Shown here: one piece after another, positions 33,909-53,986 of the stretch
How the letters are laid out: each line of letters opens with the position of its first letter
How positions within the stretch are numbered: position 1 is the first letter of the stretch
IMG/VR virus record: IMGVR_UViG_3300042387_000502
Span: 1 to 54,071 of that record
Direction: 5' to 3' (one strand)
DNA from: a virus
Taxonomy: Duplodnaviria > Caudoviricetes
Length of the DNA stretch: 54,071 nucleotides
Translations under genes and position numbers: made by a program
The notes under the pieces: model-generated
What the model was told of the DNA's origin: nothing
The model's database searches: none
Seen by the model: the letters and a program-made list of their open reading frames with translations, nothing else

Positions 33909-34107
33909 CATGACAGTGCTAGAAGAAATAATTAAAGAAATCGGTGAGGAGTTGTACCAGAAATGGTACAACGCCCTTGCAATAGAAGACAGAACAGAAG
34001 AATCTTCTAAGGCTATGTCTATAAATGCTGGAGAAACAACATTTTGGGTAGTTCAAACATTTATGAATAAATTTAATGCAGCAGCAGAGGAACTAAAAGA
34101 CAAATAA
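33901..34107 (+). CDS. hypothetical protein
   Basis: ORF in operon. Confidence 0.65.
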   Translation: MANMTVLEEIIKEIGEELYQKWYNALAIEDRTEESSKAMSINAGETTFWVVQTFMNKFNAAAEELKDK

Positions 34108-34412
34108 TGCTAGAAATAAATGACGAAAATTTTGATAAAATATTAACTCTTCATAATGTTTTAGTTGTTGATTTTTGGGCAACATGGTGTAGGCCATGTA
34201 AAATGTTTTCTCCTATTTTAGAGGAAATTTCTAAAGAAAATAATATTTGGATTGCCAAAATAGATGTAGATCAAAATCCAATACAGGCTTCAAAATACAA
34301 CATAACCTCAGTTCCAACAACAATTATATTTGAAAATGGTAAAGAGGTTAAAAAAATACTTGGCGCAAAACCTAAACATCAAATGATTGAGGAGTTAAGT
34401 AAATGGCTATAG
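34107..34412 (+). CDS. trxA: thioredoxin
   Basis: VDFWATWCRPCK, SVPT. Confidence 0.93.
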   Translation: MLEINDENFDKILTLHNVLVVDFWATWCRPCKMFSPILEEISKENNIWIAKIDVDQNPIQASKYNITSVPTTIIFENGKEVKKILGAKPKHQMIEELSKWL

Positions 34413-34579
34413 ATTTTTTAGATGTTCAATCTTGGTATGAGTATGGTCGTGAAAAAAATTGGGTATCAGAGGTATTTTGCGACACACATGAAGGACCACC
34501 ACTTTCTGATGAAGAAATGGAAGAATGGGAAGAGGGCGGAGATCCTTGTAGCTTTCATGTAAAACTTTGGGATCAATAA
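34403..34579 (+). CDS. small acidic protein
   Basis: Read manually: ...FCDTHEGPPLSDEEMEEWEEGGDPC... Confidence 0.55.
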   Translation: MAIDFLDVQSWYEYGREKNWVSEVFCDTHEGPPLSDEEMEEWEEGGDPCSFHVKLWDQ

Positions 34580-34678
34580 AGACAACAAATTGCTTGGTTA
34601 AACGTTTATATATATGGGTGTACACCCAAAATAGAATTCCATTTTGTAAAAAAATGGATAAAAAGGAGAAATAAAAAA

Positions 34679-35692
34679 ATGAAGTCATTAAAAAAGATTG
34701 CCGTTGCTTCGGCTGCAGCCCTAGCATTACTAGGCATTCAATCAATTAATGCATCAGCAGCACCGTTAGCAGTAACAGTTGCTGGTTCAGCAAATACTAC
34801 AACATCTACAGCGCCTGCGACTGCGAACGTTCCAGCCGACAACACAGTAGATTCAGCAGATGCCATTGCTTTAGCAGCAACAGCAGATACTGGAACTGTA
34901 GTTACATTTACAGCAACAGGTGGCGTTAAGCTAGTCACAGCTTTAAGCGCAACAAATGCAGTAGTTAGTTCTTCTGCAGGTTCAACGTCGTATTCAGTAA
35001 CTTCTGCAGGATCTGCAGTAACTGTTTATGCATTCACAACATCAACAGCAACAGGTTCAGTTACAATTGTAAATGGATCTTACTCTACAGTTGTTTTTGT
35101 TAAAGGAATTGCAGGTTCTGTATCAAACGTCGGAGTTTCAGTACCAACTTCAGTGGCAGTAGGAACCATTCCAGCAATTACAGTAAGCACAACAGACGTG
35201 TTTGGAAACGCAGTTTCTGATACCGTAACAGCAACATTAATTGGTGGAACTTGGGCAGATGGCTCAATTTCTAAACAAATTGTAACATCTACTGCAGCTC
35301 AGGTTGCAGCGGATTCTACATTAATTTTAGGATCTAAAAAAGAGAATACTTCAGTTGCAACAATTGGTAATGTAACAATTGCAGTAACTGGTGCGACAAC
35401 AGCAACAGCAGTCACTGGACTAAAAGTTCCAGTAAAAGCCGTAGTTGCGTCATACACAGTTACCGATTTAAATGGCACAATTGCACAACTTCAATCTCAA
35501 ATTAGCTCATTGTCAGCAGATTTAAATTCAGCAAAAGCTGACGCTGCTTCAAAACAATTAGTTATTGATTCCGCAACAGCAGCAAAAATTATTGCTGATG
35601 CAGCAGTAATTAAGGAAAAGGCTGATTATAATAAATTAGCTACAGCCTGGAATAAGGCATTTCCTAAAAAGAAGGTTGCTTTAAAGAAGTAA
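34679..35692 (+). CDS. secreted Ala/Thr/Val-rich (Ig-like/S-layer-like) protein with C-terminal coiled coil
   Basis: Signal peptide (ASA-A), strong RBS, downstream terminator. Confidence 0.7.
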   Translation: MKSLKKIAVASAAALALLGIQSINASAAPLAVTVAGSANTTTSTAPATANVPADNTVDSADAIALAATADTGTVVTFTATGGVKLVTALSATNAVVSSSAGSTSYSVTSAGSAVTVYAFTTSTATGSVTIVNGSYSTVVFVKGIAGSVSNVGVSVPTSVAVGTIPAITVSTTDVFGNAVSDTVTATLIGGTWADGSISKQIVTSTAAQVAADSTLILGSKKENTSVATIGNVTIAVTGATTATAVTGLKVPVKAVVASYTVTDLNGTIAQLQSQISSLSADLNSAKADAASKQLVIDSATAAKIIADAAVIKEKADYNKLATAWNKAFPKKKVALKK

Positions 35693-35701
35693 ATTCTTTA
35701 A

Positions 35702-35737
35702 ATAAGGGGCAAGGGAAACCTTGCCCTTTTTTTATTT
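35702..35737 (+). terminator. intrinsic terminator
   Basis: GGGCAAGG-GAAA-CCTTGCCC followed by TTTTTT. Confidence 0.85.
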
Positions 35738-35885
35738 AAATGGTAGAATATATATGTGGAGTACATTGAAGATCAAATAAGAGAAAAAATATTAAACGAA
35801 ATTAAATATTTAGAGTTACCATATGAATGGAAACCTAACGAAGTAATTAATTATATATATAATAAATTAAGTAGAGGTAAAATTA

Positions 35886-36104
35886 ATGAATAGTAAAAAA
35901 AGAAGTGTTTATAAATCAATTACATGGCCAGCAGTACATATTTTGTTTGTTGGTACATTAGTATATTTATTTGAAAAAGCTATTACTGGCGAAGCACATT
36001 GGGAATATGCTGGTTCATTTGCAATAATTTATACAGCATGTGAAATGATTGGCTTTTTCTTACACGAAAGAGCATGGGAAAAATTTGGAAAAAGAGTAAA
36101 GTGA
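35886..36104 (+). CDS. DUF2061-like membrane protein
   Basis: RS..KSITW...FFLHERAW. Confidence 0.7.
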   Translation: MNSKKRSVYKSITWPAVHILFVGTLVYLFEKAITGEAHWEYAGSFAIIYTACEMIGFFLHERAWEKFGKRVK

Positions 36105-36243
36105 GTTTAGTATTAAAGTCAGAAAATCCATTAGTTCATAGTATGTGTGAAAAAAATGATTGTGAAAATAAAGCAACAAGAATTATTAAAGATTTAAATC
36201 TTTATAGCTGGGTGTGTGAAGAATGCTATGGAAAATATAGGCC

Positions 36244-36867
36244 TTGATAAAAAATATAAATAATAAAATTTATATAATTGAGGGATATATATCTAAAAGC
36301 ACATCAGATTTTTTAACAGAAACATTTAATAGTACTACATCAGATGCACCAGATTACCAGATAAAAGGTGGTCCGTCCTTAAGTCCAGAAAATGGATATA
36401 CTTTTAAATGTGGTAATCCTATTAAAAGCTACCAAGATGATAATAATTACAATATTGGAATAGACATTTTGACAATGTTATGTAATTCAATGTCAAACAC
36501 AATTTCAGACTTTTTAGATACAAAAATGGATATTAAAACAATGTTTTATGGGTTAATGCTAGAAGGTTCTGAAATGAAAACGCATACAGATAATTACATT
36601 ACACCTAATGACCCAGAAAGTATTAGAAAAAATTCAAAAGACGATTGGTCTGGGCTTCTTTATCTTAACGATAATTATGAGGGTGGGCTTTTAGAGTTTC
36701 CTCAAGAAAATTTTTCAATAAAACCAAAACCTGGAACCTTTATTTTTTTTAAAGGGGATCATGATTTACCACATCAGGTGTCAAAAATTGAAAAAGGGCA
36801 TAGAAACGTAATAATATCATTTTTTTGGCCTATAAAATATCGTGGCCTAGATACTGTTTTGGGTTAG
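36244..36867 (+). CDS. 2OG-Fe(II) oxygenase
   Basis: HTD, YLNDNYEGG, HQV...R. Confidence 0.87.
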   Translation: MIKNINNKIYIIEGYISKSTSDFLTETFNSTTSDAPDYQIKGGPSLSPENGYTFKCGNPIKSYQDDNNYNIGIDILTMLCNSMSNTISDFLDTKMDIKTMFYGLMLEGSEMKTHTDNYITPNDPESIRKNSKDDWSGLLYLNDNYEGGLLEFPQENFSIKPKPGTFIFFKGDHDLPHQVSKIEKGHRNVIISFFWPIKYRGLDTVLG

Positions 36868-36946
36868 TAATTTCTTAAATGCTATAATAAGGGTATAGAT
36901 GGATTTCTAGACCCATCTAAATACAACAACCTATAGGAGAAATAAA

Positions 36947-37105
36947 ATGTCAGACGGAAAAGATTTAAAAGGATTTAACGAAACAAAGCCAGTAGGATCA
37001 TCACCATGGTCAACAGAATCATACACAGAGGCACCAAAAGCTGCATTCCCATCAACTGATAAGTCATCACAAGATGGCGCAGGCGTAAACAACGGCGGTA
37101 AGTAA
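36947..37105 (+). CDS. 52-aa peptide
   Basis: TGCTATAAT promoter, AGGAG RBS; MSDGKDLKGFNETKPVGSSPW... Confidence 0.65.
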   Translation: MSDGKDLKGFNETKPVGSSPWSTESYTEAPKAAFPSTDKSSQDGAGVNNGGK

Positions 37106-37107
37106 TA

Positions 37108-37257
37108 ATGTGTTTTGAATGCGGATGTGAATCAGTAGGAAGTACAACTGGAATTGTTCCAGTTACAATTACTGAAGTTTCAAGAGATGGAGAGGCTGGT
37201 CTTACATTAAATATGACCGCCACTCCAGCGCAAAGAACATCATTTATCAATGAGTGA
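37108..37257 (+). CDS. 49-aa peptide with N-terminal CxxCxC
   Basis: Read manually: MCFECGCESVGSTTG... Confidence 0.55.
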   Translation: MCFECGCESVGSTTGIVPVTITEVSRDGEAGLTLNMTATPAQRTSFINE

Positions 37258-37468
37258 AAATGGCACAGGTATGGCGACACCGCCAAACAATGAACCAGCA
37301 GGCGCAGTAACTTCTCAAGAAGTTGGTCGTAAAAAACCAAATCAAGGTAAATTTAGATCTGGAATTGCAAATCAAAGATCATTAACAAGAGTTGACCGTA
37401 ATAAACATGGGATTCGTAGAGAAACCAATATGGGTCCTAAAAAAACTGGTAGACCAAAGAAGGTTTAA
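37250..37468 (+). CDS. small basic disordered protein
   Basis: ORF ending KKTGRPKKV (AT-hook-like GRP). Confidence 0.6.
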   Translation: MSENGTGMATPPNNEPAGAVTSQEVGRKKPNQGKFRSGIANQRSLTRVDRNKHGIRRETNMGPKKTGRPKKV

Positions 37469-37470
37469 TA

Positions 37471-37572
37471 ATGTGCACAAGATCAATATCTAGTTCTTCG
37501 GATCTAGATATTGATATTTTAAATACTATAGATGATCAAATTGATAAAGCTGAAGGAACAGGATTAATATAG
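37471..37572 (+). CDS. 33-aa peptide
   Basis: Read manually; fills the gap, stop overlaps the next start. Confidence 0.4.
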   Translation: MCTRSISSSSDLDIDILNTIDDQIDKAEGTGLI

Positions 37573-38240
37573 TGATAGAAATTATTCATAAATCAGATAT
37601 TGTTGAGTATAAAAATGTATTTACAAAAGAAGAATGTGATTATATAATTTCATATTGGAATAGTCTTGATGACTGGATGCTCTCTTGCTTTTATAATATG
37701 TATACAATTTCTGGGAAAAAACCCCATACTAAAGAAGGCGGAGAAGCTTTAAATAAATTTAAAATGTTTTCACAAAATTTAGCCGAGAAAGTATTTAATA
37801 GGAAATTAAAACAAATTAGTGTAAGCTCTCATATGTGGCAGCCAGGTGCTTTTGCAGCAGATCATGCTGATAATGCTGAACTTGATGGTACTCCAAATGC
37901 ATGGATTGAAAATAAATTAGTTACAATGATTTATTTAAATGATAATTTTGAAGGTGGGCATTTAACTTTTAGAGATCATAAATTAGCTTTTAGGCCACAG
38001 GTTGGAAGTGTTATTGTTTTTGATGTTGGAATAAATAATGTACATGCAGTTACTGAAGTAACTTCTGGAACTAGGTATACAATGATGGCTTCTTATGACT
38101 ATGCAGATAGCGTTTATAATGTAGATTATAAAAAAATTAAAAATGAAAGTGAACCTTCTAGAAAAAAATTACAAGAAGAATGGGCAGAAGGAATTATAAT
38201 GCCTAAAAGTGCAGCTACTAGATATGACCCAATAAATTAA
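37572..38240 (+). CDS. 2OG-Fe(II) oxygenase
   Basis: HAD, YLNDNFEGG, HAV..V.SG.R. Confidence 0.87.
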   Translation: MIEIIHKSDIVEYKNVFTKEECDYIISYWNSLDDWMLSCFYNMYTISGKKPHTKEGGEALNKFKMFSQNLAEKVFNRKLKQISVSSHMWQPGAFAADHADNAELDGTPNAWIENKLVTMIYLNDNFEGGHLTFRDHKLAFRPQVGSVIVFDVGINNVHAVTEVTSGTRYTMMASYDYADSVYNVDYKKIKNESEPSRKKLQEEWAEGIIMPKSAATRYDPIN

Positions 38241-38241
38241 A

Positions 38242-39105
38242 ATGTATACAATAAAAACTATAGAGTTTCCTGGATACGAAGAACTTAAAAATAACTTTAA
38301 TCAATATAAGGATATGTTTTTAAGTGACAGTATTATTGCATTTAGAAATGCAAATATTAATTTTGAAATGCAAACTAAAATAATGCATTTATTTGGAGAC
38401 AATCTATCCTGGTATCCAAATTCTTCAAATAAAAATCCTTCGGATTATATAGAAACACATCACAAACATATGGACGAAAAAAACGTTTTTGATAAAAATT
38501 CTATTATGCTTCAATGGCATCAAGAACATGTTGCTCAAGAACATAACCCTTATGTCAGTGGATTATGGAATATGATTTTATTTAAATGTGAACCAAATAC
38601 TGGAAAAACATTTTTTGTAGATATGTCTAAATTATTTAATATGTTTAATGATGAAGATAAAGATTTTTTATCAAAATGCCAAATATTAATTAAGAATTAT
38701 AGGTGGCATGGCAAAAAAGATTATTATTATTATCTTGATGAAAAAGATTCAAAAAATAATAATGATGAGTTGGTTACCTACAGTTTAGTTTCAGAACATT
38801 GGATAACTAAAGAAAAAACAATTAGAACATATTTATCTGAAAGTGAGGTTACAAGTCTATATAAATTTAATAATGAAACTCCTACCATTGAAAATATTAA
38901 TAAATATAAAGAAATATCTAAAAAAATAAATAATGAAATAAATAATAATGAAGATATAAGAATGCAACATATTTGGGAACAAGGTGATCTTTTAGTACCA
39001 GATTTATTTAAACTGGCACATGCTGTTAGCGGTGGATTTAATAAAGATCAAAGACAGCTAGACGGAATGTTCGGCACACTAAGTCCTTGGCCAAAAAGAA
39101 ATTAA
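38242..39105 (+). CDS. TauD/TfdA-family dioxygenase
   Basis: WHQE, G.T.FVD, H.WEQGDLLV.D...AH...R. Confidence 0.8.
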   Translation: MYTIKTIEFPGYEELKNNFNQYKDMFLSDSIIAFRNANINFEMQTKIMHLFGDNLSWYPNSSNKNPSDYIETHHKHMDEKNVFDKNSIMLQWHQEHVAQEHNPYVSGLWNMILFKCEPNTGKTFFVDMSKLFNMFNDEDKDFLSKCQILIKNYRWHGKKDYYYYLDEKDSKNNNDELVTYSLVSEHWITKEKTIRTYLSESEVTSLYKFNNETPTIENINKYKEISKKINNEINNNEDIRMQHIWEQGDLLVPDLFKLAHAVSGGFNKDQRQLDGMFGTLSPWPKRN

Positions 39106-39108
39106 TAC

Positions 39109-39678
39109 ATGCTTGAAGAAAAAATTAGAAAAGCAAAAGTAGAAAAAAGGCCAGTTTTATTTAAAGGGATACTTCCAACTAATTCGGACTGGAACTATAT
39201 AATGAATTATATAAATAATAAGTTTAATGAGACCCCAGAATACCCAGTTCAAAATGATAGATTTTTTAAAAATAAAAAAGATAAAACTGTTTCAATGTTT
39301 AGCAATTCTGACCTTAATTTACAGGCATGGGGAATTAAATTACCAGAATGCAAAAATCTTTCTGATACATTTTCAATAACTAACAAGGTAAATGAATCTT
39401 CATTTAAACTTTTAATAGATTTTTTAGGATTTGGAAATTTAAACAATATACATAAAGATAAATCAGAGGTATATTCTTGGACTCTAATTAATTCTGTAGA
39501 ATATAGAATATATGAAAATAAAAATGAATATCCTTTTGAAGAAACACTAGAGATTGATAATGAACCTTATGAATCTTTTATTATTGAAGCTGGTGACGTT
39601 ATGTACATGCCTAAAGGAGTTGTTCATCAATCAGTAGTCAATGAGCCTAGAGTATCATTGGTAGCATCTTTTTTATAA
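39109..39678 (+). CDS. cupin/JmjC-like oxygenase
   Basis: HKD, EAGDVMYMPKGVVH, R.S. Confidence 0.75.
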   Translation: MLEEKIRKAKVEKRPVLFKGILPTNSDWNYIMNYINNKFNETPEYPVQNDRFFKNKKDKTVSMFSNSDLNLQAWGIKLPECKNLSDTFSITNKVNESSFKLLIDFLGFGNLNNIHKDKSEVYSWTLINSVEYRIYENKNEYPFEETLEIDNEPYESFIIEAGDVMYMPKGVVHQSVVNEPRVSLVASFL

Positions 39679-39680
39679 TA

Positions 39681-40247
39681 TTAATATTTTAAAGCGTAAT
39701 TTTTATCATTACCTAACCAAATTAACATAGTGTATCTAGTGTCTACTATTTTTTTAATTTCATGGTCATAATTAAGTTCTCCATTTTGAGATGGAAAACA
39801 AAAAAGGTCCCCAGAACGAGGTTGATATTTATATTCTAAATAAGGAAAATGAACTTCACCTTCATTAAATACATCATTTAAATAAATAGAGCAGGTATAT
39901 TTAATATGGGGATTTCTTCCAAAATCGTTATCTCCATGAATTTCTAAAAATGCACCATCCGTTTGTTTTGCCAACCAAAAAGAAGAAGGGTAAAGATCTT
40001 CATAACATTGATATTCAGACCTTATCTTCTCGACACATTTTTCAAAATATTTTAATACTAAATTTTTAATTTCTTCAAGTTCATTTAAATTTATTGATGA
40101 TTCATGATAATTGTCTTTACCAAACATTTTTATAAAGTATTTATTCTCTTGAAAAGATTGAAATTTATTTAAATTATTATCAATATATGTTATTACCTGA
40201 TTAGACTCTGATTTTTCAATAAATTTATTAAATATTTTTATAGTCAT
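39681..40247 (-). CDS. 2OG-Fe(II) oxygenase (inverted, leaderless)
   Basis: HGD, YLND, HEI...R; TGATACAAT 6 nt upstream. Confidence 0.85.
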   Translation of the reverse strand: MTIKIFNKFIEKSESNQVITYIDNNLNKFQSFQENKYFIKMFGKDNYHESSINLNELEEIKNLVLKYFEKCVEKIRSEYQCYEDLYPSSFWLAKQTDGAFLEIHGDNDFGRNPHIKYTCSIYLNDVFNEGEVHFPYLEYKYQPRSGDLFCFPSQNGELNYDHEIKKIVDTRYTMLIWLGNDKNYALKY

Positions 40248-40283
40248 GGTATTATTGTATCATTTATGGTATAATTTTGGTAT

Positions 40284-40466
40284 ATGCGTAAATTAATTGA
40301 CGGTTCTATAGTTAATTCATATAAAGAGCCAACGACTTTAACAGTTAAAACAAAAGCCCCAGAAAAATGGAAGCTTATTGATATGGAAACTGGACAGGAA
40401 TATGTTGGTTCCCCAAACCTCACTAAATATGGAATGTGGATTAGAGTTAAGGATAAAAATAATTAA
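40284..40466 (+). CDS. hypothetical protein
   Basis: TKAPEKWKLIDMETGQEY; TGGTATAAT promoter. Confidence 0.65.
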   Translation: MRKLIDGSIVNSYKEPTTLTVKTKAPEKWKLIDMETGQEYVGSPNLTKYGMWIRVKDKNN

Positions 40467-40468
40467 TA

Positions 40469-41161
40469 ATGAAATATAATCTTGATTTGACTACAATTGA
40501 AGGAGATCTTCAATATATTGATAATTTTTTAACACAAGAAGAATTAGATTTTTTTAAACCATACATGGACGACCATGAGGGATGGTATACAACTATGCGT
40601 TCTCCATATAAAAATATTTTAAATAAATTTATTTCTGTTGATTTGCCAAGAAGACCAGATGGAAGCACTGGTGTGCCATCCGATGAGCCACCTATATTAC
40701 ATGATGTTTTTCATAGACCAATGGGAATATATGAAAGATTGTTTAAAGTTATGCCTCCAACATATAGGCCGCATAATGCTTTACAAACATTTAAATATTG
40801 TACAGATGAAGAAATTTTAAGAGATCTGCATCCAGACCTTAAAAAAGAATATAAAGGTAAAGAGCATGAAATTGATTTTGCTATGTCATTTCACTGTGAG
40901 TGGAGCGATGAAAGTACTGTGCCTGAATTTAATAGATCTTTGTCTATTTATTTAAATGATGATTTCGAGGGCGGAATTTTAGATTTTAAATTTAAACCAT
41001 ATAAAATTAAGCCAAAAGCTGGCATGCTAGTTTTGGTTCCAGTAACTCACGAATTTACTCATAGGGTTACTAAAATAACTTCTGGCAACTGGAGACACAC
41101 TCTTTATGGTGCTTCTTGGAATGGTAAATTTCCTCCTCCAAGCACAGAAGAAACTTGCTAA
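40469..41161 (+). CDS. 2OG-Fe(II) oxygenase
   Basis: HCE, YLNDDFEGG, HRV..I.SG..R. Confidence 0.82.
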   Translation: MKYNLDLTTIEGDLQYIDNFLTQEELDFFKPYMDDHEGWYTTMRSPYKNILNKFISVDLPRRPDGSTGVPSDEPPILHDVFHRPMGIYERLFKVMPPTYRPHNALQTFKYCTDEEILRDLHPDLKKEYKGKEHEIDFAMSFHCEWSDESTVPEFNRSLSIYLNDDFEGGILDFKFKPYKIKPKAGMLVLVPVTHEFTHRVTKITSGNWRHTLYGASWNGKFPPPSTEETC

Positions 41162-41224
41162 TATCTATTGACTAAATCAATATAAATATTGTATAATAAA
41201 CACCTACTAGTAGAAAGATAAATA

Positions 41225-43267
41225 ATGAGCGAATCTAAATGCCCATTTACGGGTAATGCTTTAAATAATGAAAAAACATCTAACGAGTATTGGTGGCCTA
41301 ATCAATTAGACCTATCACCACTAAGAAAACATTCAGAAAAATCTAATCCAATGACAAATGGATTCGATTACGCTAAAGAGTTTAATAGCTTAGACCTTGA
41401 TGCCCTTAAGAGTGATATTAATACACTCCTTACTACCTCACAAGAATGGTGGCCAGCAGATTACGGAAACTATGGACCATTCTTTATTCGTATGGCATGG
41501 CATTCTGCAGGTACGTACAGAACAACAGATGGTCGTGGCGGTGCAGGAGAAGGATTACATAGATTTGCTCCACAAAACTCTTGGCCAGATAATGGTAATT
41601 TAGATAAAGCTCGTCGTTTGCTCTGGCCTATTAAGCAAAAGTATGGAAATAAAATTTCATGGGCAGACCTTATGATTCTTGCAGGTAATGTTGCTCTTGA
41701 AAATATGGGATTCAAAACATTTGGTTTTGCTGGTGGTCGTGAAGATGTTTGGGAATCAGATGATACATACTGGGGTTCAGAAAAAGAATGGCTTGCAGAT
41801 AATCGATATAGTAGAGATCGTGAATTAGAAAATCCTCTTGCTGCAGTTCAAATGGGATTAATTTATGTAAACCCAGAAGGTCCTAATGGAAATCCAGATC
41901 CAATTCTTTCTGCAAAAGATATTCGTGAAACATTTGCACGTATGGCTATGAATGATGAGGAAACTGTTTCTCTTATTGCAGGTGGACATGCATTTGGTAA
42001 AGCACATGGCGCTGGTGATCCATCAAACGTTGGGCCAAATCCTGAAGCTGCACCTATTGAAGAAATGGGTCTTGGTTGGAAAAACTCATTTGGAAAAGGA
42101 AACGCAGAAGACACAATTACAAGTGGTATTGAAGGTGCATGGACTGCAACCCCTACTAAGTGGGACAACTCATACCTTAAGTTATTGTTTAAGTATGATT
42201 GGACACAAACAAAGTCACCTGCTGGTGCAACACAATGGATTCCAACAGATGAGTCTGCTGCTAATTTAGTTCCAGACGCACACATTAAAGGTAAGTTCCA
42301 TGCTCCAGTGATGACAACTGCAGACCTCGCATTGAAGTTTGATCCAGAGTACGAAAAGATTTCACGAAGATTCCTTGAAGACTTTGACTACTTCTCAGAT
42401 CAGTTTGCTCGTGCATGGTTTAAGCTAACTCATAGAGATATGGGTCCAATTGCAAGATACCTTGGCAAAGAAGTTCCTTCTGAAGAATTAATTTGGCAGG
42501 ACCCAGTTTCATTATCTAATACAAATATTGATATAGACTCTATTAAGAATAAGATTAAGTCTTCTGATATACCTATGTCATACTTTGTAGAAACGGCATG
42601 GGCTTCTGCATCTACTTTCCGAAAAACAGATAAGCGTGGCGGAGCAAATGGTGCTCGTATTAAATTAGAACCACAAAACAAGTGGGAAGTAAATAGCAGC
42701 AATGCAGTATCAACCGTTATTAATTTCCTAGAATCTATTAAAGAAGAGTCTGGTGCTTCTCTTGCTGATTTAATTGTTTTAGCAGGATGTGCAGCAATTG
42801 AAAAAATCTCTAAAGACTTATTAATAGTTCCGTTTACTCCTGGGCGTGGGGACGCAACACAAGAACAAACAGACATAGATTCATTTGCAGTCCTTGAACC
42901 AAAATTTGATGGTTTCCGTAACTACACTCATTGGAGCATAACTGTCCCAGAAGAAGTTTTATTAGTAGAAAAAGCTAATCTATTAGGCCTAACCCCAGTA
43001 GAATTAGTGCTTTTGTTATCTGGTATGAGAATGTTAAGCAATAATAAACTAGACAATAGTTACTTAATTGAATTACTTTCATATACCAATGCCAATCAAG
43101 CAAAAGGTATTCCTGTTGTAGATTTAATCATTGCGTCTAACTCTGAACTTCGTGCAATTGCCGAAGTGTATGCCTCAGATGATGCTAAAGATAAATATAT
43201 TAAAGACTTTATTTCAGCGTGGGATAAGGTTATGATGTTAGACCGATTTGATACAAGAAAAGGATAA
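41225..43267 (+). CDS. katG: catalase-peroxidase
   Basis: [44 protein letters not shown]; TTGACT-N18-TATAAT promoter. Confidence 0.97.
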
Positions 43268-46252: not shown

Positions 46253-46444
46253 TTATTTAGTTATACGTGTTACGGTTACTGGACCACATAGGGTATTGTA
46301 TCTATCTTGTTCCGCCGTCTTTCTTGCCTTCTCTATTTTCTTCCATTTACGGAAAGCTGTTAGGGCATGATTCTTATCTCTACCCCGCTTTGTATCCTCC
46401 CATTTCTTCGGCTTACGTTGAGAGGACCCCGTAGCTTTGCTCAT
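46253..46444 (-). CDS. small basic protein
   Basis: ORF coupled to upstream gene (ATGA). Confidence 0.55.
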   Translation of the reverse strand: MSKATGSSQRKPKKWEDTKRGRDKNHALTAFRKWKKIEKARKTAEQDRYNTLCGPVTVTRITK

Positions 46445-46710
46445 GCGGTAGGCTCATGCATTTCTATAACCTCAGCAAGGTGGCTAGATAACATCAGAGC
46501 CTCAGAGGTAATACCCTCAGCCCAATAGGGTTCAAAGTTGCCAGCCTGATATCTAATAATTTCCTTTATCAACTCCATAAGTCTATCTTGGGTATATAGA
46601 GGAAAGTTATTTACAATTATGTTAGCGCATATCATTGGATTAAACCAATGGTTGTCTAACACTTTTGCTAATTGTTCTGCGATTTTTTCTTCATCTGTTT
46701 TTTTAGCCAT
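46441..46710 (-). CDS. hypothetical protein
   Basis: GAAAGGCGG RBS; TGGTATAAT promoter. Confidence 0.7.
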   Translation of the reverse strand: MAKKTDEEKIAEQLAKVLDNHWFNPMICANIIVNNFPLYTQDRLMELIKEIIRYQAGNFEPYWAEGITSEALMLSSHLAEVIEMHEPTA

Positions 46711-46796
46711 GTCCGCCTTTCATAAAGATTATACCAAAAAGGTTGGAGAAGGTCAACGATTTCGGGGGCTCGTCAACCCTCTCCAATATTTATTGT

Positions 46797-46940
46797 TTAC
46801 TTAGTTAGTTTAACTTCTGCAGTAAACTTTACGCCGTTCTTCTCTGCCTCTGACAGAGCTTGCTTAGCAGCACCTGAGAAGCGACCACGCTTGCCCACTG
46901 TAATGCCCTTGGTCTTTAGATATTCACGCTTTGTTGTCAT
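46797..46940 (-). CDS. Lsr2-like DNA-binding domain protein
   Basis: Read manually: MTTKREYLKTKGITVGKRGRFSGAAKQAL; RGR AT-hook as in the Lsr2 C-domain. Confidence 0.7.
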   Translation of the reverse strand: MTTKREYLKTKGITVGKRGRFSGAAKQALSEAEKNGVKFTAEVKLTK

Positions 46941-47374: not shown

Positions 47375-47615
47375 GTTGTTTAGCCCTTTCGTTGATAGCG
47401 AATGATAAATTATACGTCATAACATAGATTTCTGTCAATGCGTCTAGTCGACCTGAAAAATATTTATATTCAGGCATATCCTGTAATTCAGATATGTCTA
47501 ACAGTTTAGTTTCACATTCATACATTAGATTCTTCATATGTCCATGCATGATGTCTGTACCTGTCTCACCCATGTCTACAAGCTTTTGAAGATGTGTGTC
47601 AAGTTTGTCACTCAT
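47367..47615 (-). CDS. hypothetical protein
   Basis: ORF in operon. Confidence 0.7.
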   Translation of the reverse strand: MSDKLDTHLQKLVDMGETGTDIMHGHMKNLMYECETKLLDISELQDMPEYKYFSGRLDALTEIYVMTYNLSFAINERAKQRG

Positions 47616-48189: not shown

Positions 48190-48211
48190 ATTATATAACA
48201 GACCACTGACA
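48190..48211 (-). promoter_or_regulatory. PafBC/RecA-NDp-type promoter
   Basis: TGTCAG-TGGTCTGTTA-TATAAT. Confidence 0.75.
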
Positions 48212-48320
48212 TTGTATATAGAATATAGGTGTGTTTCACACCACATGTCCAAGCTTTGAGATTTCAGGGAAATATATTTGACTGTCGTAAACAACATATG
48301 CTACCCTCACCCGTGAGCGC

Positions 48321-48452
48321 AAAAGAGAAGCCCCCGTGTATGGGATCACGGGGACTAAGATAAATGGCTGCTAGGACCTCAACGAAAGGAAAAACCTGCC
48401 TTACTTAGCATCTAGAGGAGATGCACCATTTATATAAATAGGCACAAGGCCT
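48321..48452 (-). ncRNA. candidate trans-acting sRNA with anti-RBS seed
   Basis: TGATATAAT promoter at 48459-48467; seed UUCCUUUCGUUGA; terminator CCCCGUG/CACGGGG plus CUUCUCUUUU. Confidence 0.6.
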
Positions 48453-48469
48453 ATTCAAATTATATCACA

Positions 48470-48874
48470 CTAAACGAGTAATCTTTCCAGCGCATACTTC
48501 TCACAGAACGCCGATAGGTCCATGGTAAAAATTGCTTCATTCTTCATACCAAGAACTTTGTTTTCAAGGTTTCGGTGATCGTCTTGCTCATGTAGCGAGA
48601 ACGTTTGATCTTTCCAGTTGATAACAGCAATCTTATGCTCGTTATCTCCAATTGAATTTACTTGAAGACCCCAGCCTGTTTCCATGTTCCATTGATCTCC
48701 GATTAATTGACTGATCGCAATACGTGTAGCATATGATTCATCTGTCCAACGGGGACGGGCAGCAATGACAGCATCCGCCAATTTACCTAACATGTTATAT
48801 CCAGCCCAATGTCCATACAGACATATAGTGTCGCCTGCTCCGTCTACGAATACGTAGTTTGCTCTATCTCCCAT
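48470..48874 (-). CDS. conserved phage hypothetical protein
   Basis: MGDRAN...LYGHWAG...RW.D.SY. Confidence 0.75.
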   Translation of the reverse strand: MGDRANYVFVDGAGDTICLYGHWAGYNMLGKLADAVIAARPRWTDESYATRIAISQLIGDQWNMETGWGLQVNSIGDNEHKIAVINWKDQTFSLHEQDDHRNLENKVLGMKNEAIFTMDLSAFCEKYALERLLV

Positions 48875-49101
48875 TATATTTCCGCCTTTTCTAGTTGAGG
48901 GACTTTTTCTGTTTTATTTAATTCTACTATTTCTAGTGTTACTTTGTCAAGAGCCTGTTTATTCTTGTTTAAATGGTGGCTACAGAAGCTGAGCTCATTT
49001 GATGTAAGCCCTCCCACTGTATCTACATCTGACTTATTAACAAATCTAATTATCCATTTAGCCTGAGCTGGACAAGAATCGCATTTAATCCATTCGCTCA
49101 T
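48874..49101 (-). CDS. zinc-binding protein (actinobacterial CDxC...FCxHH type)
   Basis: CDSC.AQA...LSFCSHH. Confidence 0.7.
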   Translation of the reverse strand: MSEWIKCDSCPAQAKWIIRFVNKSDVDTVGGLTSNELSFCSHHLNKNKQALDKVTLEIVELNKTEKVPQLEKAEI

Positions 49102-49244
49102 AGTTTATTACTTTCAATCATGTCTGATAGTCTGTCTAATAACCATGAATCAATGTCAGCGATATCAATCTCCCGTAACTTCTCAATCATTTCTTCACGG
49201 GCAAACTTATAGCCTTCTTGGAATCCATCTTTATAATCAGACAT
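49098..49244 (-). CDS. hypothetical protein
   Basis: Read manually: MSDYKDGFQEGYKFAREE... Confidence 0.6.
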   Translation of the reverse strand: MSDYKDGFQEGYKFAREEMIEKLREIDIADIDSWLLDRLSDMIESNKL

Positions 49245-49476
49245 TTAACATCCTATCATATCTATATGCCAATTCGTTATCAGCATATTTACTTTCGACT
49301 AAAACCTTAAGTTGGTGCTTAGATATTAATCTAGTTACCTTCTCAATGTTACCAGTTCCTATTTCGAAAGTCAATGTTTCTTTGTTATATGAATCAGGAT
49401 CTAATCCTCCAACCTCAGCGTCCCATATAGAAAAATGGAACGCCCTGGATGAATCTGCTTTTAATTTATAAAACAT
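49237..49476 (-). CDS. hypothetical protein
   Basis: ATG overlapping the upstream stop. Confidence 0.65.
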   Translation of the reverse strand: MFYKLKADSSRAFHFSIWDAEVGGLDPDSYNKETLTFEIGTGNIEKVTRLISKHQLKVLVESKYADNELAYRYDRMLNV

Positions 49477-50108
49477 TAGTTCCAATCCACATCTGTGTCT
49501 TCAATTGACCAATCATTTACTTCAACATCATTGCCATATGATGTTAATGAAAGTTCATCTCCGAGTTTGTAATGAGCGTCAAAGTTATCAATCTCATCAA
49601 GTGGGACCTGAACAGTTACTTCAAAGTTAATAGTTCCAGTTACTGTAACTGTCTTTGATAATTCAAAGCCAAACAGTTCTGATATTTGTTGAAGCGCTTC
49701 TTCTTTTGTATAATTAGGATTATACAATTCAACTAGAAGTTCCTCTAACTCATTAACTTTAAGTTTAAGGCCATTGTATAAATCATCAGCACGGCGACCT
49801 TGTTCAAGGGCCCATTCGATGTCGACTACCTTCTCTGTCGAGTAAGTTGTCTCCCCGTTAAAAATCTTCTTGTAAGTTACAAGTAGATTAGAGTTATACT
49901 CATTAGGTACTGCAGGTGTTATTGTTGCTCCATATGTTTCCATTTTATTCCTTTCGTTGGTTGAGAGTATTGTAGCATCTTGCACTGACAATAAGGTGGA
50001 CCGTATCAAACAGTGTGAAATATTTGTAGCTTCCCCTTTTCGTGTTACCTCAATCAAGGCATCACAATTAGTGCAAAGGTATGTATCCTTAAACCATTTG
50101 TCAGTCAT
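49476..50108 (-). CDS. hypothetical protein with a second in-frame start at 49943
   Basis: Coupled ATG at 50108; internal promoter and RBS before the ATG at 49943. Confidence 0.7.
   Translation of the reverse strand: MTDKWFKDTYLCTNCDALIEVTRKGEATNISHCLIRSTLLSVQDATILSTNERNKMETYGATITPAVPNEYNSNLLVTYKKIFNGETTYSTEKVVDIEWALEQGRRADDLYNGLKLKVNELEELLVELYNPNYTKEEALQQISELFGFELSKTVTVTGTINFEVTVQVPLDEIDNFDAHYKLGDELSLTSYGNDVEVNDWSIEDTDVDWN
49969..49990 (-). promoter_or_regulatory. PafBC/RecA-NDp-type promoter
   Basis: TGTCAG-TGCAAGATGC-TACAAT. Confidence 0.75.
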
Positions 50109-50839
50109 ACTTTAACCTTATGAACACTGCATTCTGCCATGGCCTGTTCATCTTGCCAAGATCCTTGATTACAAAGTTCACAGAATTCACCGCATCCCTC
50201 TTCGCAGTATTCTATTGTATTGTAAGATTGACAGGCATAGCAACGATTTTGATATTCCATTAATTCGTTAACCTCACCACGGACAATCTCGTATTCTCCG
50301 CCCCAACCTGTTTCTTCCTCAAATTCAAGGGTTAGTAAAGAGTTAGGAACAAGATTACTTAGTTTAGTTAATATAGTTACAGCAGGTGACCAAGCAGTAT
50401 TATATTTATATACCAACCAGTTATCATCACCGTCTGATGTGTATTCAAGTAATTCAGTATCAGGATACTCGTCACCGTCTGATACGGCTACATCCCATTT
50501 AGTTCCCCAGTTAGTTGTATTCCATGAATACCAATCTTTCTGAGTCATAGCATGCGCTACCTCTTTAGCAAACCAATCAGGTGCACTCGTGTCTGTTCCT
50601 AGTCGTGTAGGCTGTTGAACATATTCTTGCATTGTAATACCGTCTTGTAGTGGAGAATGTATATTCCAAAATGCAAAGACAGGATTAGAGTAAGTTGATT
50701 CTGTTATTTCCATTTTCATAGTTTCCATATTCCAACTATCGTGCCATACCATAAATGGCTCGTTAAGTTTATCTTTGATAAAATCTATCTCAGACTTTGG
50801 ACCTTGGATTGTTAATGTGTTATACACCCAGTTAGGCAT
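50105..50839 (-). CDS. YubB/DUF1281 (Api92-like ferredoxin-fold) protein
   Basis: MPNWVYNTL, WYSWN..NWGTKWD, YNTAWSP. Confidence 0.8.
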   Translation of the reverse strand: MPNWVYNTLTIQGPKSEIDFIKDKLNEPFMVWHDSWNMETMKMEITESTYSNPVFAFWNIHSPLQDGITMQEYVQQPTRLGTDTSAPDWFAKEVAHAMTQKDWYSWNTTNWGTKWDVAVSDGDEYPDTELLEYTSDGDDNWLVYKYNTAWSPAVTILTKLSNLVPNSLLTLEFEEETGWGGEYEIVRGEVNELMEYQNRCYACQSYNTIEYCEEGCGEFCELCNQGSWQDEQAMAECSVHKVKV

Positions 50840-50864
50840 ATTATTCCTTTCGTTGAATAGCGCA

Positions 50865-50886
50865 ATTGTAGCAGAGTCAACTGACA
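50865..50886 (-). promoter_or_regulatory. PafBC/RecA-NDp-type promoter
   Basis: TGTCAG-TTGACTCTGC-TACAAT. Confidence 0.75.
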
Positions 50887-50958
50887 TTATCAAGGATTTC
50901 AGGGCTTTTTATACACATGCCGTAAAAAAGAAAAATGGCCTTTACGTCTGGGGGCTTG

Positions 50959-51032
50959 CGATCCATAACGGACTTGAACCGTCGACCTCTACCGTGACAG
51001 GGTAGCGCTCTAACCAACTGAGCTAATGGACC
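50959..51032 (-). tRNA. tRNA-Asp(GTC)
   Basis: Acceptor GGTCCAT/ATGGATC, anticodon arm CTACC-CTGTCAC-GGTAG, GTTCAAGTC T-loop, G73. Confidence 0.95.
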
Positions 51033-51063
51033 TAGATGTGGGGCCCTTTCGGGCCCCAGTTGA

Positions 51064-52071
51064 TTAGGCTAACGCCTTAACCGCTTTGAGAATTTTATTC
51101 TTCTCTGCGGTAATGATTGGATCGAAACCACTTGCACCAGCATTTAGCGATTCGGTGTTACCAGTACGGGCGGTACGGTAATAATCTAAACGCTCAGTCA
51201 ATGCATTAAACGCACCCCAAGCAGTGCCTTTAATTGTGTTATTAGTTGGTGAGTTATGATAAAGGTCATCAATTAAAACAACCTTATTCTCCCACTTCTT
51301 TAATGCGCCTTTAACATCTGCTTCAGGCTTTGGGTATAGATTGCGAATCAAATCCGAGAATTGCTTATCGGTAATTGATTGCTTGAATAATTCGTCCGCT
51401 TCCTTTTGAAATGCATCTGCGTATGCAAATGTTAATCCCAATGCTTGACGGGCTTGCACAATTCTACCTTCGGCAGTTTGTGTATGACGAATCTTGAATG
51501 ATTGCTTAGCGCCCTTCATTGCAAGATTAAGAGTGTTTTGGCATACAACACGAACGGGTGTAATTGCTGCTTGAACCGCAACTGAACCGTCGTGAGATGT
51601 CCATACAATTAAATATAACTTAGTTTTATCGTTAATACCTTGTGGGTCTAATACGATCTCTCTAGGTATATCTAATGAGCCAAATACAACTTTGCCCTTT
51701 TTAATTGAGCCAGCAGATTCCCATTTAGCAGAATCGTTATCTAATACATTATCAGCAAATGCGAATAACTCTTCATTCTGAACAGTTTTGTATCGCTTGC
51801 CAACTACTGATAAAACATCAGTGCCTTGGTCAAATGGATTATCACGAATGACAAAGAAATTGTCTGATGTATTTCTCCATGTGTTTGGGATATGATCTGC
51901 AACATCTGACAAGCGGACATTCCAGTTATTCAACTTTGCTTCTTCAAGCATTGTTGCGGTAGTTACATTTTCATCTTGAGCGAAAATGCGATTTGCAAGA
52001 TTATGCCAAGCAGGTGCACCACGCAATGCAAATGCTACTTGACCATCTTGCTCTTCGAGATTATGAGCCAT
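51064..52071 (-). CDS. DUF932 / TIGR03299 phage-plasmid protein
   Basis: AWH.L, Y..VQN, SHDGS, TPVRVVCQNTL, RHT, GTAWGAFNALTE. Confidence 0.88.
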   Translation of the reverse strand: MAHNLEEQDGQVAFALRGAPAWHNLANRIFAQDENVTTATMLEEAKLNNWNVRLSDVADHIPNTWRNTSDNFFVIRDNPFDQGTDVLSVVGKRYKTVQNEELFAFADNVLDNDSAKWESAGSIKKGKVVFGSLDIPREIVLDPQGINDKTKLYLIVWTSHDGSVAVQAAITPVRVVCQNTLNLAMKGAKQSFKIRHTQTAEGRIVQARQALGLTFAYADAFQKEADELFKQSITDKQFSDLIRNLYPKPEADVKGALKKWENKVVLIDDLYHNSPTNNTIKGTAWGAFNALTERLDYYRTARTGNTESLNAGASGFDPIITAEKNKILKAVKALA

Positions 52072-52098
52072 TTTATCCTTTCGTTTGGTTGAATGCTT

Positions 52099-52120
52099 AT
52101 TCTAACATACACGACTGACA
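52099..52120 (-). promoter_or_regulatory. PafBC/RecA-NDp-type promoter
   Basis: TGTCAG-TCGTGTATGT-TAGAAT. Confidence 0.75.
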
Positions 52121-52153
52121 TTGTCTATCTTATTTGACATGAATTTGCGGGGG

Positions 52154-52185
52154 TTTTCCACAGGGTGCCGTAAGGCTGTGGATAA
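52154..52185. promoter_or_regulatory. pair of DnaA boxes
   Basis: TTTTCCACA (52154-62) and TGTGGATAA (52177-85). Confidence 0.55.
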
Positions 52186-52243
52186 GTCCCCAGCTATTGA
52201 GGGCAGGGGAAATGGGCCAGGGGACTAGGCTGGCCCAAGTTTA

Positions 52244-52456
52244 TTAGATTAAGTTATGAATCTCTTCTGGAAAGAATGCTGCGAATACTTTTTTGTTTTC
52301 TTGTGTATCAACAACATATGCTTTAACATTGCCTTGAAATTTTTTTAAATTACTTTTAACTAACTTAGTTAATGCATCACGATTATAACTATTTGCAGAC
52401 CATAACGTTAGATCATGAGCTTTATTAGCATCATAGATTTCTACACGATACCGCAT
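52244..52456 (-). CDS. hypothetical protein
   Basis: AAAGGAA RBS; TGTTATAAT promoter. Confidence 0.7.
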   Translation of the reverse strand: MRYRVEIYDANKAHDLTLWSANSYNRDALTKLVKSNLKKFQGNVKAYVVDTQENKKVFAAFFPEEIHNLI

Positions 52457-52528
52457 TGTGTTCCTTTGTTAGTAGGGATAGAAATTATAACATAGGGGGC
52501 TAGATTTTGTCTAGCCCCCATCTGTTAT

Positions 52529-52951
52529 TTAGAGATAACGAGCAATAGCGTTATAGGTGCTTGTGCTAACTGTTTCCTCATCGGTCATTTTGAGAATACG
52601 AATAGCATTTTCCATTTCCTCTTTCATCTCACGATAAGTGTGCTGATGGATTTGCTCAAAATCTTTTACAGGCTCAGCAGGGAAATCGCCTTCCTTAACT
52701 GTTAAATCAAAATCAACATTAAGGGAGTTGTTCCAAGAACGATAGTTGGTGCGTAGGTTTTCAGCCTTTGAGAATTGACTAATAGCCCATTTCCCAATTT
52801 CCTTTTTCCAAGCATCTACTTTCTTTTGGAACTTTGCTTCGTTTTCATCTTGCTTTGTGTAATCAGCCTCTAGTTTGGCTAATCTTGTTTCTAAGGCTTT
52901 GATAACCTTAGCAGTAGGTATTTTTACCTGTATTGCTTTGCCTCTTGCCAT
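52529..52951 (-). CDS. hypothetical protein
   Basis: CAACGAAAGGAA RBS. Confidence 0.8.
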   Translation of the reverse strand: MARGKAIQVKIPTAKVIKALETRLAKLEADYTKQDENEAKFQKKVDAWKKEIGKWAISQFSKAENLRTNYRSWNNSLNVDFDLTVKEGDFPAEPVKDFEQIHQHTYREMKEEMENAIRILKMTDEETVSTSTYNAIARYL

Positions 52952-52988
52952 TTGTGTTTCCTTTCGTTGGTTGGTTGTTGTTATGAGT

Positions 52989-53010
52989 ATTATAGCAGGA
53001 GGGTCTGACG
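52989..53010 (-). promoter_or_regulatory. PafBC-type promoter variant inside a hairpin
   Basis: CGTCAG-ACCCTCCTGC-TATAAT; 10-bp inverted repeat at 52995-53020. Confidence 0.65.
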
Positions 53011-53029
53011 ACCCTCCTGCCCTAAATTA

Positions 53030-53209
53030 CTAGCCCAGTAGCGTTTTAGCGGATACTGAAGTCCAACGAGTTTCTTTCGTTGGCATTTCTAGTAGCACAC
53101 GCACCGAGCCAGATGCCTGTGGGTGTATCTCTTTGATAACACCTGTTCTTTTTGACTTTAGGGTGGTGAATAAATCGCCAACCTGATAGAGTTTTCCTTC
53201 TATTGTCAT
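53030..53209 (-). CDS. small SH3/KOW-like protein
   Basis: Read manually: MTIEGKLYQVGDLFTTLKSKRTGVIKEI... Confidence 0.65.
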   Translation of the reverse strand: MTIEGKLYQVGDLFTTLKSKRTGVIKEIHPQASGSVRVLLEMPTKETRWTSVSAKTLLG

Positions 53210-53237
53210 TTTTGCCTCTTTTCTTTGTTAGGTGGTA

Positions 53238-53259
53238 AGTATAACATTGGGGTCTGACA
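53238..53259 (-). promoter_or_regulatory. PafBC/RecA-NDp-type promoter
   Basis: TGTCAG-ACCCCAATGT-TATACT. Confidence 0.72.
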
Positions 53260-53304
53260 TTTGTCTAGCCCTATCTCACTATTTGAGAATCTTAGCGTGT
53301 GACC

Positions 53305-53571
53305 TTAGTCACTTTCTTGTAGCCAAGCGTGGAGGTGGTGTTGGTCTACGATAGCCGATGCAGGTGCGAATTTTTCTCCACGATAAAATACGCCTTCAGG
53401 CATTTCGATCAATTTGTTGTAGTCCTCATCCCAATAAGCGTCAATAGCCTCGATGCAAGGTTGCACCATAGATAGTGGAACGGGCGGGTAATGATTACCC
53501 TGTAAGTGATAAGCGATACCTTGTTCTAAATCGAACTCGCTTGCTAAATCTAGCGCAGTGTTATTTCCCAT
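53305..53571 (-). CDS. conserved actinophage hypothetical protein
   Basis: HLQGNHYPPVP...HHL.AWL. Confidence 0.75.
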   Translation of the reverse strand: MGNNTALDLASEFDLEQGIAYHLQGNHYPPVPLSMVQPCIEAIDAYWDEDYNKLIEMPEGVFYRGEKFAPASAIVDQHHLHAWLQESD

Positions 53572-53573
53572 TG

Positions 53574-53798
53574 TTAGTTTCCTTCCGCAATAGTTACTTC
53601 AGCCCAAGTGTTATTTTCATTAGCAAGTGGTAATACATTAGACATACCAAGTGCGTGTAGTGTTGCTTCCTTGCACATTTGCTTTAGTGTTGTTTCGTCA
53701 AGCGCAATTAGCGCAGGCAATAAACTTGCAGGAATTTTATCCAAGTCAATAATTGCCTCGAATACTATTGTGTGTGGAACTTTCATTAGATTAGACAT
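53574..53798 (-). CDS. hypothetical protein
   Basis: CAACGAAAGG RBS. Confidence 0.7.
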   Translation of the reverse strand: MSNLMKVPHTIVFEAIIDLDKIPASLLPALIALDETTLKQMCKEATLHALGMSNVLPLANENNTWAEVTIAEGN

Positions 53799-53826
53799 TT
53801 GCTACCTTTCGTTGGTTGATAAGAGT

Positions 53827-53848
53827 ATTTTACACTATGCCACTGACA
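53827..53848 (-). promoter_or_regulatory. PafBC/RecA-NDp-type promoter
   Basis: TGTCAG-TGGCATAGTG-TAAAAT. Confidence 0.75.
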
Positions 53849-53864
53849 TTACCTAATCCATCCT

Positions 53865-53986
53865 CGGCGTGTCGCAGCTTTTGTGATAATACTCACAATT
53901 TCAGGGGTTGTGGATAACTCTCGTAACCCTGTGGATAACCCCCTACATATAGGGGCCGAGCTGACAATTGTCAACTCGACACGCCG
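53865..53986. promoter_or_regulatory. cluster of host-regulator-like sites (CRP, DnaA, GACAC boxes)
   Basis: TGTGA-N6-TCACA at 53882-97; TGTGGATAA at 53909-17 and 53930-38; CGGCGTGTCG at 53865 and CGACACGCCG at 53977. Confidence 0.6.

Follow-up and report, generated by a model that had tools for sequence, protein, structure and literature searches.

Which promoters serve the minus-strand block of small genes in the phage record IMGVR_UViG_3300042387_000502, and which factor reads them? We analyzed the whole record as one window of 54,071 nucleotides (nt), which CheckV estimates to be ~50% complete. Its minus strand carries repeated promoter-like sites of the form YGTCAG-N10-TANNNT, seven of which a first-pass annotation had assigned to the PafBC/RecA-NDp type, a class of DNA-damage promoters in actinobacteria. 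A pattern search of the window returned all seven, each at exactly the position it had been given, among eight matches; dinucleotide shuffles yielded 0.87 +/- 0.92 matches, and none of 100 shuffles reached eight. The sites place a TGTCRG hexamer, or "-26 element," exactly 10 nt from a housekeeping-sigma -10 hexamer, which usually has an extended TG, and they have no conserved -35. With moderate confidence, and arguing from sequence, we interpret the seven sites as actinobacterial PafBC-class promoters that would be read by host PafBC via sigma adaptation.

Sites in the window and in related phages

At all seven sites, which lie on the minus strand, an ATG follows the end of the -10 hexamer after 23-37 nt (28, 28, 37, 27, 25, 25, and 23 nt), in agreement with the 20-40 nt originally proposed. 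Site 1 (TGTCAGTGGCATAGTGTAAAAT, 53827-53848) precedes a 74-amino acid (aa) open reading frame (ORF; 53574-53798), which is followed by one of 88 aa (53305-53571). Site 2 (TGTCAGACCCCAATGTTATACT, 53238-53259) has the "ACC" flavor and a partial -35-like TAGACA upstream, and it precedes a 59-aa ORF (53030-53209). Site 3 (CGTCAGACCCTCCTGCTATAAT, 52989-53010) is located in front of a 140-aa ORF (52529-52951), site 4 (TGTCAGTCGTGTATGTTAGAAT, 52099-52120) in front of a DUF932 gene (51064-52071; 335 aa; Pfam 5e-57, phrog_1221), and site 5 (TGTCAGTTGACTCTGCTACAAT, 50865-50886) in front of a 244-aa DUF1281_C-like ORF (50105-50839). Site 6 (TGTCAGTGCAAGATGCTACAAT, 49969-49990) precedes an ATG at 49943 and is itself found inside an in-frame ORF (49476-50108), such that a long and a short protein form may both be made; four small ORFs follow it down to 48470, among them a DUF7455 gene (48874-49101). 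Site 7 (TGTCAGTGGTCTGTTATATAAT, 48190-48211) precedes six small ORFs, from 48166 down to 46797, the last of which is an Lsr2-like fragment (46797-46940, minus strand). The eighth match (18442-18463, minus strand) is isolated and antisense inside a plus-strand epimerase gene, and it is probably a chance match, as about one random match is expected in the window. On the plus strand, the other promoter types that the annotation had described are indeed present, with nine TTGACn-N16-18-TAnAAT matches, eight of them in gaps before genes.

We compared these sites to those of related phages. A search with the DUF932 protein yielded 158 related IMG/VR stretches, from which 80 loci were kept (887,513 bases, on contigs of up to 120 kb). 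In these loci, the gene strand carries 1019 matches to the pattern and the opposite strand 8. A spacing of N10 is found in 730 unique contexts and each other spacing from N6 to N15 in 67 at most. Among single changes to the hexamer, an A to G exchange at position 5 alone is tolerated (118 versus 0), with the rest near background and changes of G2, T3, and C4 at background. The family motif thus is TGTCRG-N10-TAnnnT, and its R is the R of the TGTCR form quoted in the first-pass annotation. A matrix built from 728 distinct sites reads aAA-TGTC(A.83/G.16)G-T-S-S-c-n-t-n-T-G-c-TAtAAT; the TG before the -10 (-15/-14) is present in 81% of these sites, and the -35 position holds ~0.9 bit in total versus >11 bits for the hexamer. 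Two 3' flavors are found among the 730 sites, TGG... (510) and ACC... (146).

Five relatives are complete (104-120 kb). One strand of each bears 14-18 matches, and a single block of 9.5-12 kb accounts for 14-17 of them; the opposite strand has 0-3 matches, and a reversed-pattern control gives 0-2. In the closest complete relative, the block begins at a divergent junction, contains 14 sites, has three canonical promoters at its end, and converges on oppositely oriented genes; the window represents the distal part of this layout, with its right end cut. The sites of the proposed seven-promoter regulon thus stand, and its size does not: the regulon is larger, because the window is cut and complete relatives hold 14-17 block sites. 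Their conservation in relatives excludes a chance or compositional origin, and the motif scan that had been suggested reveals a strand-specific, family-wide element with fixed spacing. In a wider pattern scan of viral contigs, for which 80 of at least 164 stretches were examined, we found more site clusters, some hardly alignable to the family (nine sites in 3.4 kb of locus L246, whose best blastn match to the family is 48 nt), and loci without similarity to the family contain one or two isolated matches. The A/G dialect at position 5 was considered as a clade marker and dismissed, as both forms are mixed within phages (<10% G in 47 of 77 loci, >40% in 11).

A local peculiarity concerns site 3, where a 10-bp inverted repeat (GCAGGAGGGT...ACCCTCCTGC; 52995-53020, minus strand) has the hexamer CGTCAG as its loop and overlaps both spacer and extended -10. 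A hexamer hairpin is not a general feature: among the relatives, 8 of the 146 sites of ACC type and 1 of the 510 of T type form a stem of 4 bp or more. The ORF containing site 6 (49476-50108, minus strand) encodes 210 aa with a CxxC...HC motif at the N-terminus, and its start overlaps the previous stop codon (ATGA).

Likeness to PafBC promoters and possible readers

The in vivo PafBC motif has been described as tGTCgg(N10)tA(N3)T, the 5' part of which, at -28 to -23, is the -26 element; the helix-turn-helix (HTH) of PafB reads its GTC triplet, the -10 is canonical, there is no -35, and the guanines of the motif are near-absolutely conserved across actinobacteria (PMC8635444). PafBC is activated by single-stranded DNA (ssDNA) bound to its WYL domains (PMC11804915). 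The phage motif has every sequence-level feature of the published consensus (GTC core, N10, TAnnnT, and no conserved -35), and an invariant GTC 10 nt upstream of the -10 is present in all seven window sites.

We next turn to bacterial genomes, 401 of which were sampled from the class around a Streptomyces genome. The motif is located upstream of recA in 38 of 40 actinobacterial genomes examined. It precedes recA in all 20 genomes of 1.3-1.5 Mb (single-contig or small), as TGTCAG in 16 and TGTCGG in 4, and typically reads TGTCAGTGGCGCCTGCTACCTT. In larger high-GC genomes, GTC-N12-TAnnnT is found before recA in 18 of 20 cases on the gene strand and in none on the reverse (TGTCGG 10, TGTCCG 4, TGTCAG 1, other 3). 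The TGTCAG form of the phage is thus the small-genome form, as it is carried by 16 of 20 small-genome but only 1 of 18 large-genome recA sites. Agreement between the phage consensus and the host recA site extends past the hexamer (GTGGC...CTGC), and both phage 3' flavors (TGG... and ACCC...) occur among host recA sites. Together, the geometry and the invariant GTC, which match the published consensus, and the same motif in front of host recA support the original assignment to the PafBC/RecA-NDp type.

The small genomes also encode the corresponding activator. Adjacent tandem WYL ORFs are present in all five small genomes inspected for them. In one of these, G304, one ORF is PafB (PafB chains of PDB 9fnd and 7p5x matched at E 1e-47) and keeps the R-M-F-E-R segment that, by spacing, holds the two DNA-reading arginines; the other is PafC (Pfam HTH_PafC 4e-24; E 8e-22 to the PafC chain). 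A PafC-HTH match above the curated cut-off is found in all 61 sampled genomes of the candidate host order (1.2-2.2 Mb). A check for pafBC in the predicted host, which the first-pass annotation had recommended, thus turns out positive for this order.

It is conceivable how such sites would operate. A phage with no detected reader would rely on the PafB-PafC heterodimer of its host. The trigger would presumably be ssDNA arising from infection or damage; ssDNA-bound PafBC would insert between domain 4 of sigma-A and the -26 element, allowing host RNA polymerase to start. Within a block of ~11 kb of small, mostly unknown genes, each unit would be served by its own site, and the rest of the genome by ordinary -35/-10 promoters. 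The near-consensus -10 with its TG may provide basal activity that is boosted by PafBC, and PafBC might also be titrated by so many sites. Early expression of the block is probable by analogy with the terminal-repeat genes of Streptomyces phages.

Could the phage instead supply its own reader? Phages commonly carry their own middle-gene activators, and a phage protein of unrecognised fold might read TGTCRG, as MotA does with AsiA in phage T4. It would be made from canonical promoters or delivered with the virion, and the likeness to recA would then reflect convergence or binding-site mimicry only. Most proteins of the block and genome are without a family assignment (a PHROG match is missing for 12 of the 20 block proteins, and the Lsr2-like fragment alone received a name), and sub-threshold sigma-r4-like HTH matches occur in ORFs of 49-62 aa in four of the five complete relatives. 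However, G001 has 14 sites and no such small HTH, and none of the five complete relatives contains a match to WYL, host PafB, HTH_PafC, or Sigma70_r2. A Pfam scan of 103 window ORFs likewise detected no WYL domain and no sigma factor. The earlier suggestion of a PafBC mimic encoded outside the window therefore finds no support in the complete relatives, which lack WYL, PafB, and PafC-HTH matches. A separate reader also would not require the host recA likeness beyond the hexamer, nor both flavors, and we consider a phage activator unlikely.

A different possibility is that the sites act mainly as PafBC decoys, with 14-17 strong sites per genome copy capturing PafBC and blunting the damage response of the host, or that the hexamer is the operator of a repressor that turns the block off; in both cases, transcription would arise from the extended -10 alone. 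The sites in ~12 kb of phage are as numerous as the pattern matches in a whole host genome, and their -10 is near consensus and mostly preceded by TG. One block unit even has an extended -10 only: a terminator hairpin (52495-52519) and next a promoter without the TGTCRG hexamer (TGTTATAAT, 52484-52492) make up an element at 52484-52519 (minus strand) upstream of a 70-aa ORF (52244-52456). Yet neither decoys nor operators need a fixed 10-nt distance to a -10 or a single orientation, and the sites stand only before genes, which makes this explanation quite unlikely in our view.

Finally, host RNA polymerase or a general partner such as sigma-A, CarD, or RbpA could read the hexamer directly, with PafBC and DNA damage uninvolved. 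Many actinobacterial promoters lack a -35, and carD itself bears the motif in one host genome. Against this, small host genomes contain 11-16 whole-genome pattern matches versus 7-15 for a reversed-pattern control, such that the motif does not represent a general type of promoter in these hosts. The published structure in addition assigns the -26 element to PafB (PMC8635444), and we regard direct reading as very unlikely.

Host lineage and points against reading by host PafBC

That the host of the window phage is an actinobacterium is well supported by sequence comparison, since the window encodes WhiB and an Lsr2-like fragment, and all 173 cultured-phage records matching the WhiB protein of the window are phages of Actinobacteria. 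Mycobacterium and Corynebacterium, the model hosts of the first-pass annotation, are not the natural host given the GC content of the window (34%; 27-41% across 2-kb windows), and a streamlined freshwater actinobacterium is more likely. Run labels place the window sequence in lake water. Our candidate host order consists of small-genome actinobacteria, which by size and habitat we take to be similar to the streamlined actinobacteria of freshwater, for example "Ca. Nanopelagicales"; the sequence link between the phage and this order is weak.

Several markers were inspected for this link. Phage RecA is 34-38% identical to all listed matches, with 356 of 401 genomes matched, and is uninformative. 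Genomes flagged as unpublished contribute to the RecA and tRNA-Asp tallies alone, and none of our claims depends on them. A nucleotide search with the auxiliary-gene region (23000-42999) against the candidate order produced matches for katG alone (49 of 61 genomes, 67-74% identity). KatG shares 56-64% identity across many phyla; its best protein match is in the candidate order (64.8%, 920 bits versus 62.9%, 894 bits for a Bacteroidota genome). In a KatG tree, some rows of which are mis-picked ORFs on long branches, the phage and the candidate order fall into a 16-row clade (SH-like 99), the inner branching of which is not resolved.

A number of observations weigh against host PafBC as the reader. 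KatG, with its small score margin and unsettled inner branching, provides a weak host link only. The tRNA-Asp (GTC) gene within the block (50958-51032, minus strand) is 82-88% identical to those of 21 of 401 assorted genomes and thus uninformative, and a GC gap separates the phage from the sampled candidate-host loci (~48-53%). Other exact-pattern host sites precede carD, LysM, Rce1-like, TPR, DUF6504, and NlpC/P60 genes, which is not a textbook repair set. A matrix from high-GC recA sites places none of the seven phage sites in its top 14, and a small-genome recA matrix places only three of seven at the top; we did not retain the full-width host recA matrix as a test, as spacer composition dominates its scores. 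A few sites have partial -35-like hexamers (TAGACA and TTGATA), and the extended -10 of the phage could work without an upstream factor. The reported silence of PafBC promoters in the absence of ssDNA would be an odd dependency for phage genes that are needed immediately. Parts of the block are found in 24 lake/freshwater RNA runs, contigs from four of which cover 17-22 of 30 bins; these metatranscriptome contigs have no visible starts, and one runs on across a promoter.

Further regulatory layers, gene content and known systems

A second feature common to the block is the leader AACGAAAGG, six copies of which are found on the minus strand between 47385 and 53813 (5' ends 53813, 52968, 52085, 50854, 49958, and 47393), all in the block. 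It follows five of the seven sites and lies within the longer CCAACGAAAGGA. None of 81 plus-strand genes has this leader; these use AAGGAG-type sites. The 80 related loci contain 498 copies on the gene strand.

We located a candidate structured noncoding RNA (48318-48455, minus strand) in a 260-nt gap (48212-48470). It is laid out as a 5' hairpin, a long-range helix enclosing the hairpin P1 and the invariant UUCCUUUCGUU (48381-48391), and a terminator hairpin (48329-48356), and an extended -10 (TGATATAAT, 48459-48467) is positioned directly upstream. The window copy folds with -44.3 kcal/mol (z -3.5). Over 21 distinct sequences, pairing in the three helices amounts to 97.4% versus 78.4% in shuffles, with 0 of 500 shuffles reaching the observed value; double-change cells number 52 versus 17, and slid controls give 39-61%. 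Covariation thus supports the three helices. A stem flanking the invariant segment is only partly consistent and hence not claimed. The candidate is present in 59 of the 80 related loci, and no Rfam family matches it. Its invariant core CUUUCGUU is the complement of the block leader/Shine-Dalgarno region, and we propose from this complementarity that CUUUCGUU and AACGAAAG could be the partners in an RNA-leader pairing, through which the RNA may gate the translation of the block or switch it off.

Perfect DnaA-box words (TTATCCACA) are found between transcription units at 53930-53938, 53909-53917, and 52177-52185 (minus strand). In the related loci they occur 196 times on the gene strand and 81 times on the opposite strand versus ~4 expected per strand, with at least one copy in 70 of 80 loci, often clustered with an inverted copy. 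Judged by sequence, these clusters may represent a phage origin using host DnaA, or DnaA titration sites.

Taken together, one may tentatively envision a three-part program in widespread lytic lake actinophages, which we think possible rather than probable: 14-17 promoters that borrow PafBC, a leader confined to the block, and an RNA that pairs with this leader. The alarm of the host would fire the block, the sites would titrate PafBC away from repair genes, and the RNA would gate or shut off translation. If true, it would constitute the first known case of a virus hijacking a WYL-type damage activator; to our knowledge, PafBC and sigma adaptation have been described solely as a DNA-damage response of the host. 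Relatives of the WYL sensor, BrxR and CapW, switch on anti-phage defence, and exploitation of WYL-type ssDNA sensors by viruses would represent a new control logic. The ~730 distinct variant sites would constitute a natural promoter set defining the tolerance of PafBC, and the motif would offer a sequence-only handle for linking uncultured actinophages to hosts. The leader-complementary RNA and the DnaA-box clusters would add two further regulatory layers, both testable.

The first-pass annotation was not aware of a description of such promoters in these phages. Our literature search, which covered titles and abstract openings, likewise found no published description of phage promoters of the PafBC class. 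A paper on the isolation of Planktophila phages deals with phages of 39 kb that belong to another family, and promoters are not a topic of the part covered (PMC10202952). A 2025 paper in ACS Infect Dis on pafBC and resistance to mycobacteriophages is cited in PMC12848934.

The ORFs of the window are crude longest-ORF picks, and the antisense ORFs 49145-49471 and 53608-53856 (both plus strand) are probably not genes. Among the 103 ORFs, Pfam matches on the plus strand include WhiB, a DnaB-like helicase, primase, Pol III alpha, RecA, KatG, Hsp20, thioredoxin, and many 2OG-Fe(II) oxygenases; those of the minus-strand block are DUF932, DUF7455, and the DUF1281_C-like protein. Two canonical promoters are found in the block: TTGACC-N17-TATAAT (46728-46756, minus strand) in front of its last two ORFs (46441-46710 and 46253-46444), and a second at 47409-47438 (minus strand). 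The katG gene (41225-43264, plus strand; Pfam 7e-67) has a canonical TTGACT-N18-TATAAT promoter at 41168; the candidate hosts are said to be peroxide-sensitive, and KatG is an unusual auxiliary gene for a phage of such hosts. The region 19555-41158 contains seven ORFs with matches to 2OG-Fe(II) oxygenase Pfam families, TauD-like and JmjC-like ORFs, a sugar epimerase, a glycosyltransferase, and a nucleotidyltransferase, a gene set that suggests functions in DNA or surface modification.

We compared the block to the closest known systems. It shares with the PafBC (RecA-NDp) promoters of mycobacteria and other actinobacteria the GTC-core hexamer at -28 to -23, N10 to a TAnnnT, the missing -35, an R at hexamer position 5, and the location of the motif upstream of host recA. 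In contrast to these, the sites reside in a phage, number 14-17 per block, and stand in front of small, functionally uncharacterized genes instead of repair genes; their -10 is near consensus with an extended TG, and their PafBC dependence is a prediction. In the middle promoters of T4 (MotA box, AsiA), a class of phage genes also uses an upstream box in place of the -35 together with a host -10, and PafBC has itself been likened to T4 sigma appropriation (PMC8635444). T4, however, remodels sigma with two proteins of its own, whereas no reader was found here and the borrowed factor would be a damage sensor of the host.

SOS-coupled induction of prophages by LexA/CI cleavage similarly ties phage expression to the sensing of host damage and ssDNA. 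It operates by derepression via RecA, whereas the block would be activated via a WYL protein. The LexA box has a palindromic GAAC-N4-GTTC core, for which the window contains no match, and a general Pfam scan of the window revealed no integrase or repressor.

Large Streptomyces phages (Jay2Jay and kin, Stanwilliamsviridae) provide the best cultured matches to the DUF932 gene: their homolog (~54% identity) occurs twice per record, in the terminal repeat, and their WhiB is closest to that of the window. At the nucleotide level, no cultured phage was matched by the block in a megablast search. An Lsr2-like gene is likewise part of the Jay2Jay block, the many small genes of which come with individual promoters and CGAAAGG-type leaders. 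Its terminal-repeat genes (L204, 1-16000) have a common promoter, gggcTTGTAtCTGCc-N-TGTAGACT, and the leader CATCGAAAGGGgg, a unit design like that of the freshwater block. GTC-N12-TAnnnT matches in Jay2Jay (8 versus 0; TGTCC) are incidental, as promoters there are of the -35/-10 type, TTG(T/C)AT-N17-(TG)TAGACT. From sequence, the block of the freshwater family thus appears to be a homolog of this one that carries a -26 element where Jay2Jay has a -35.

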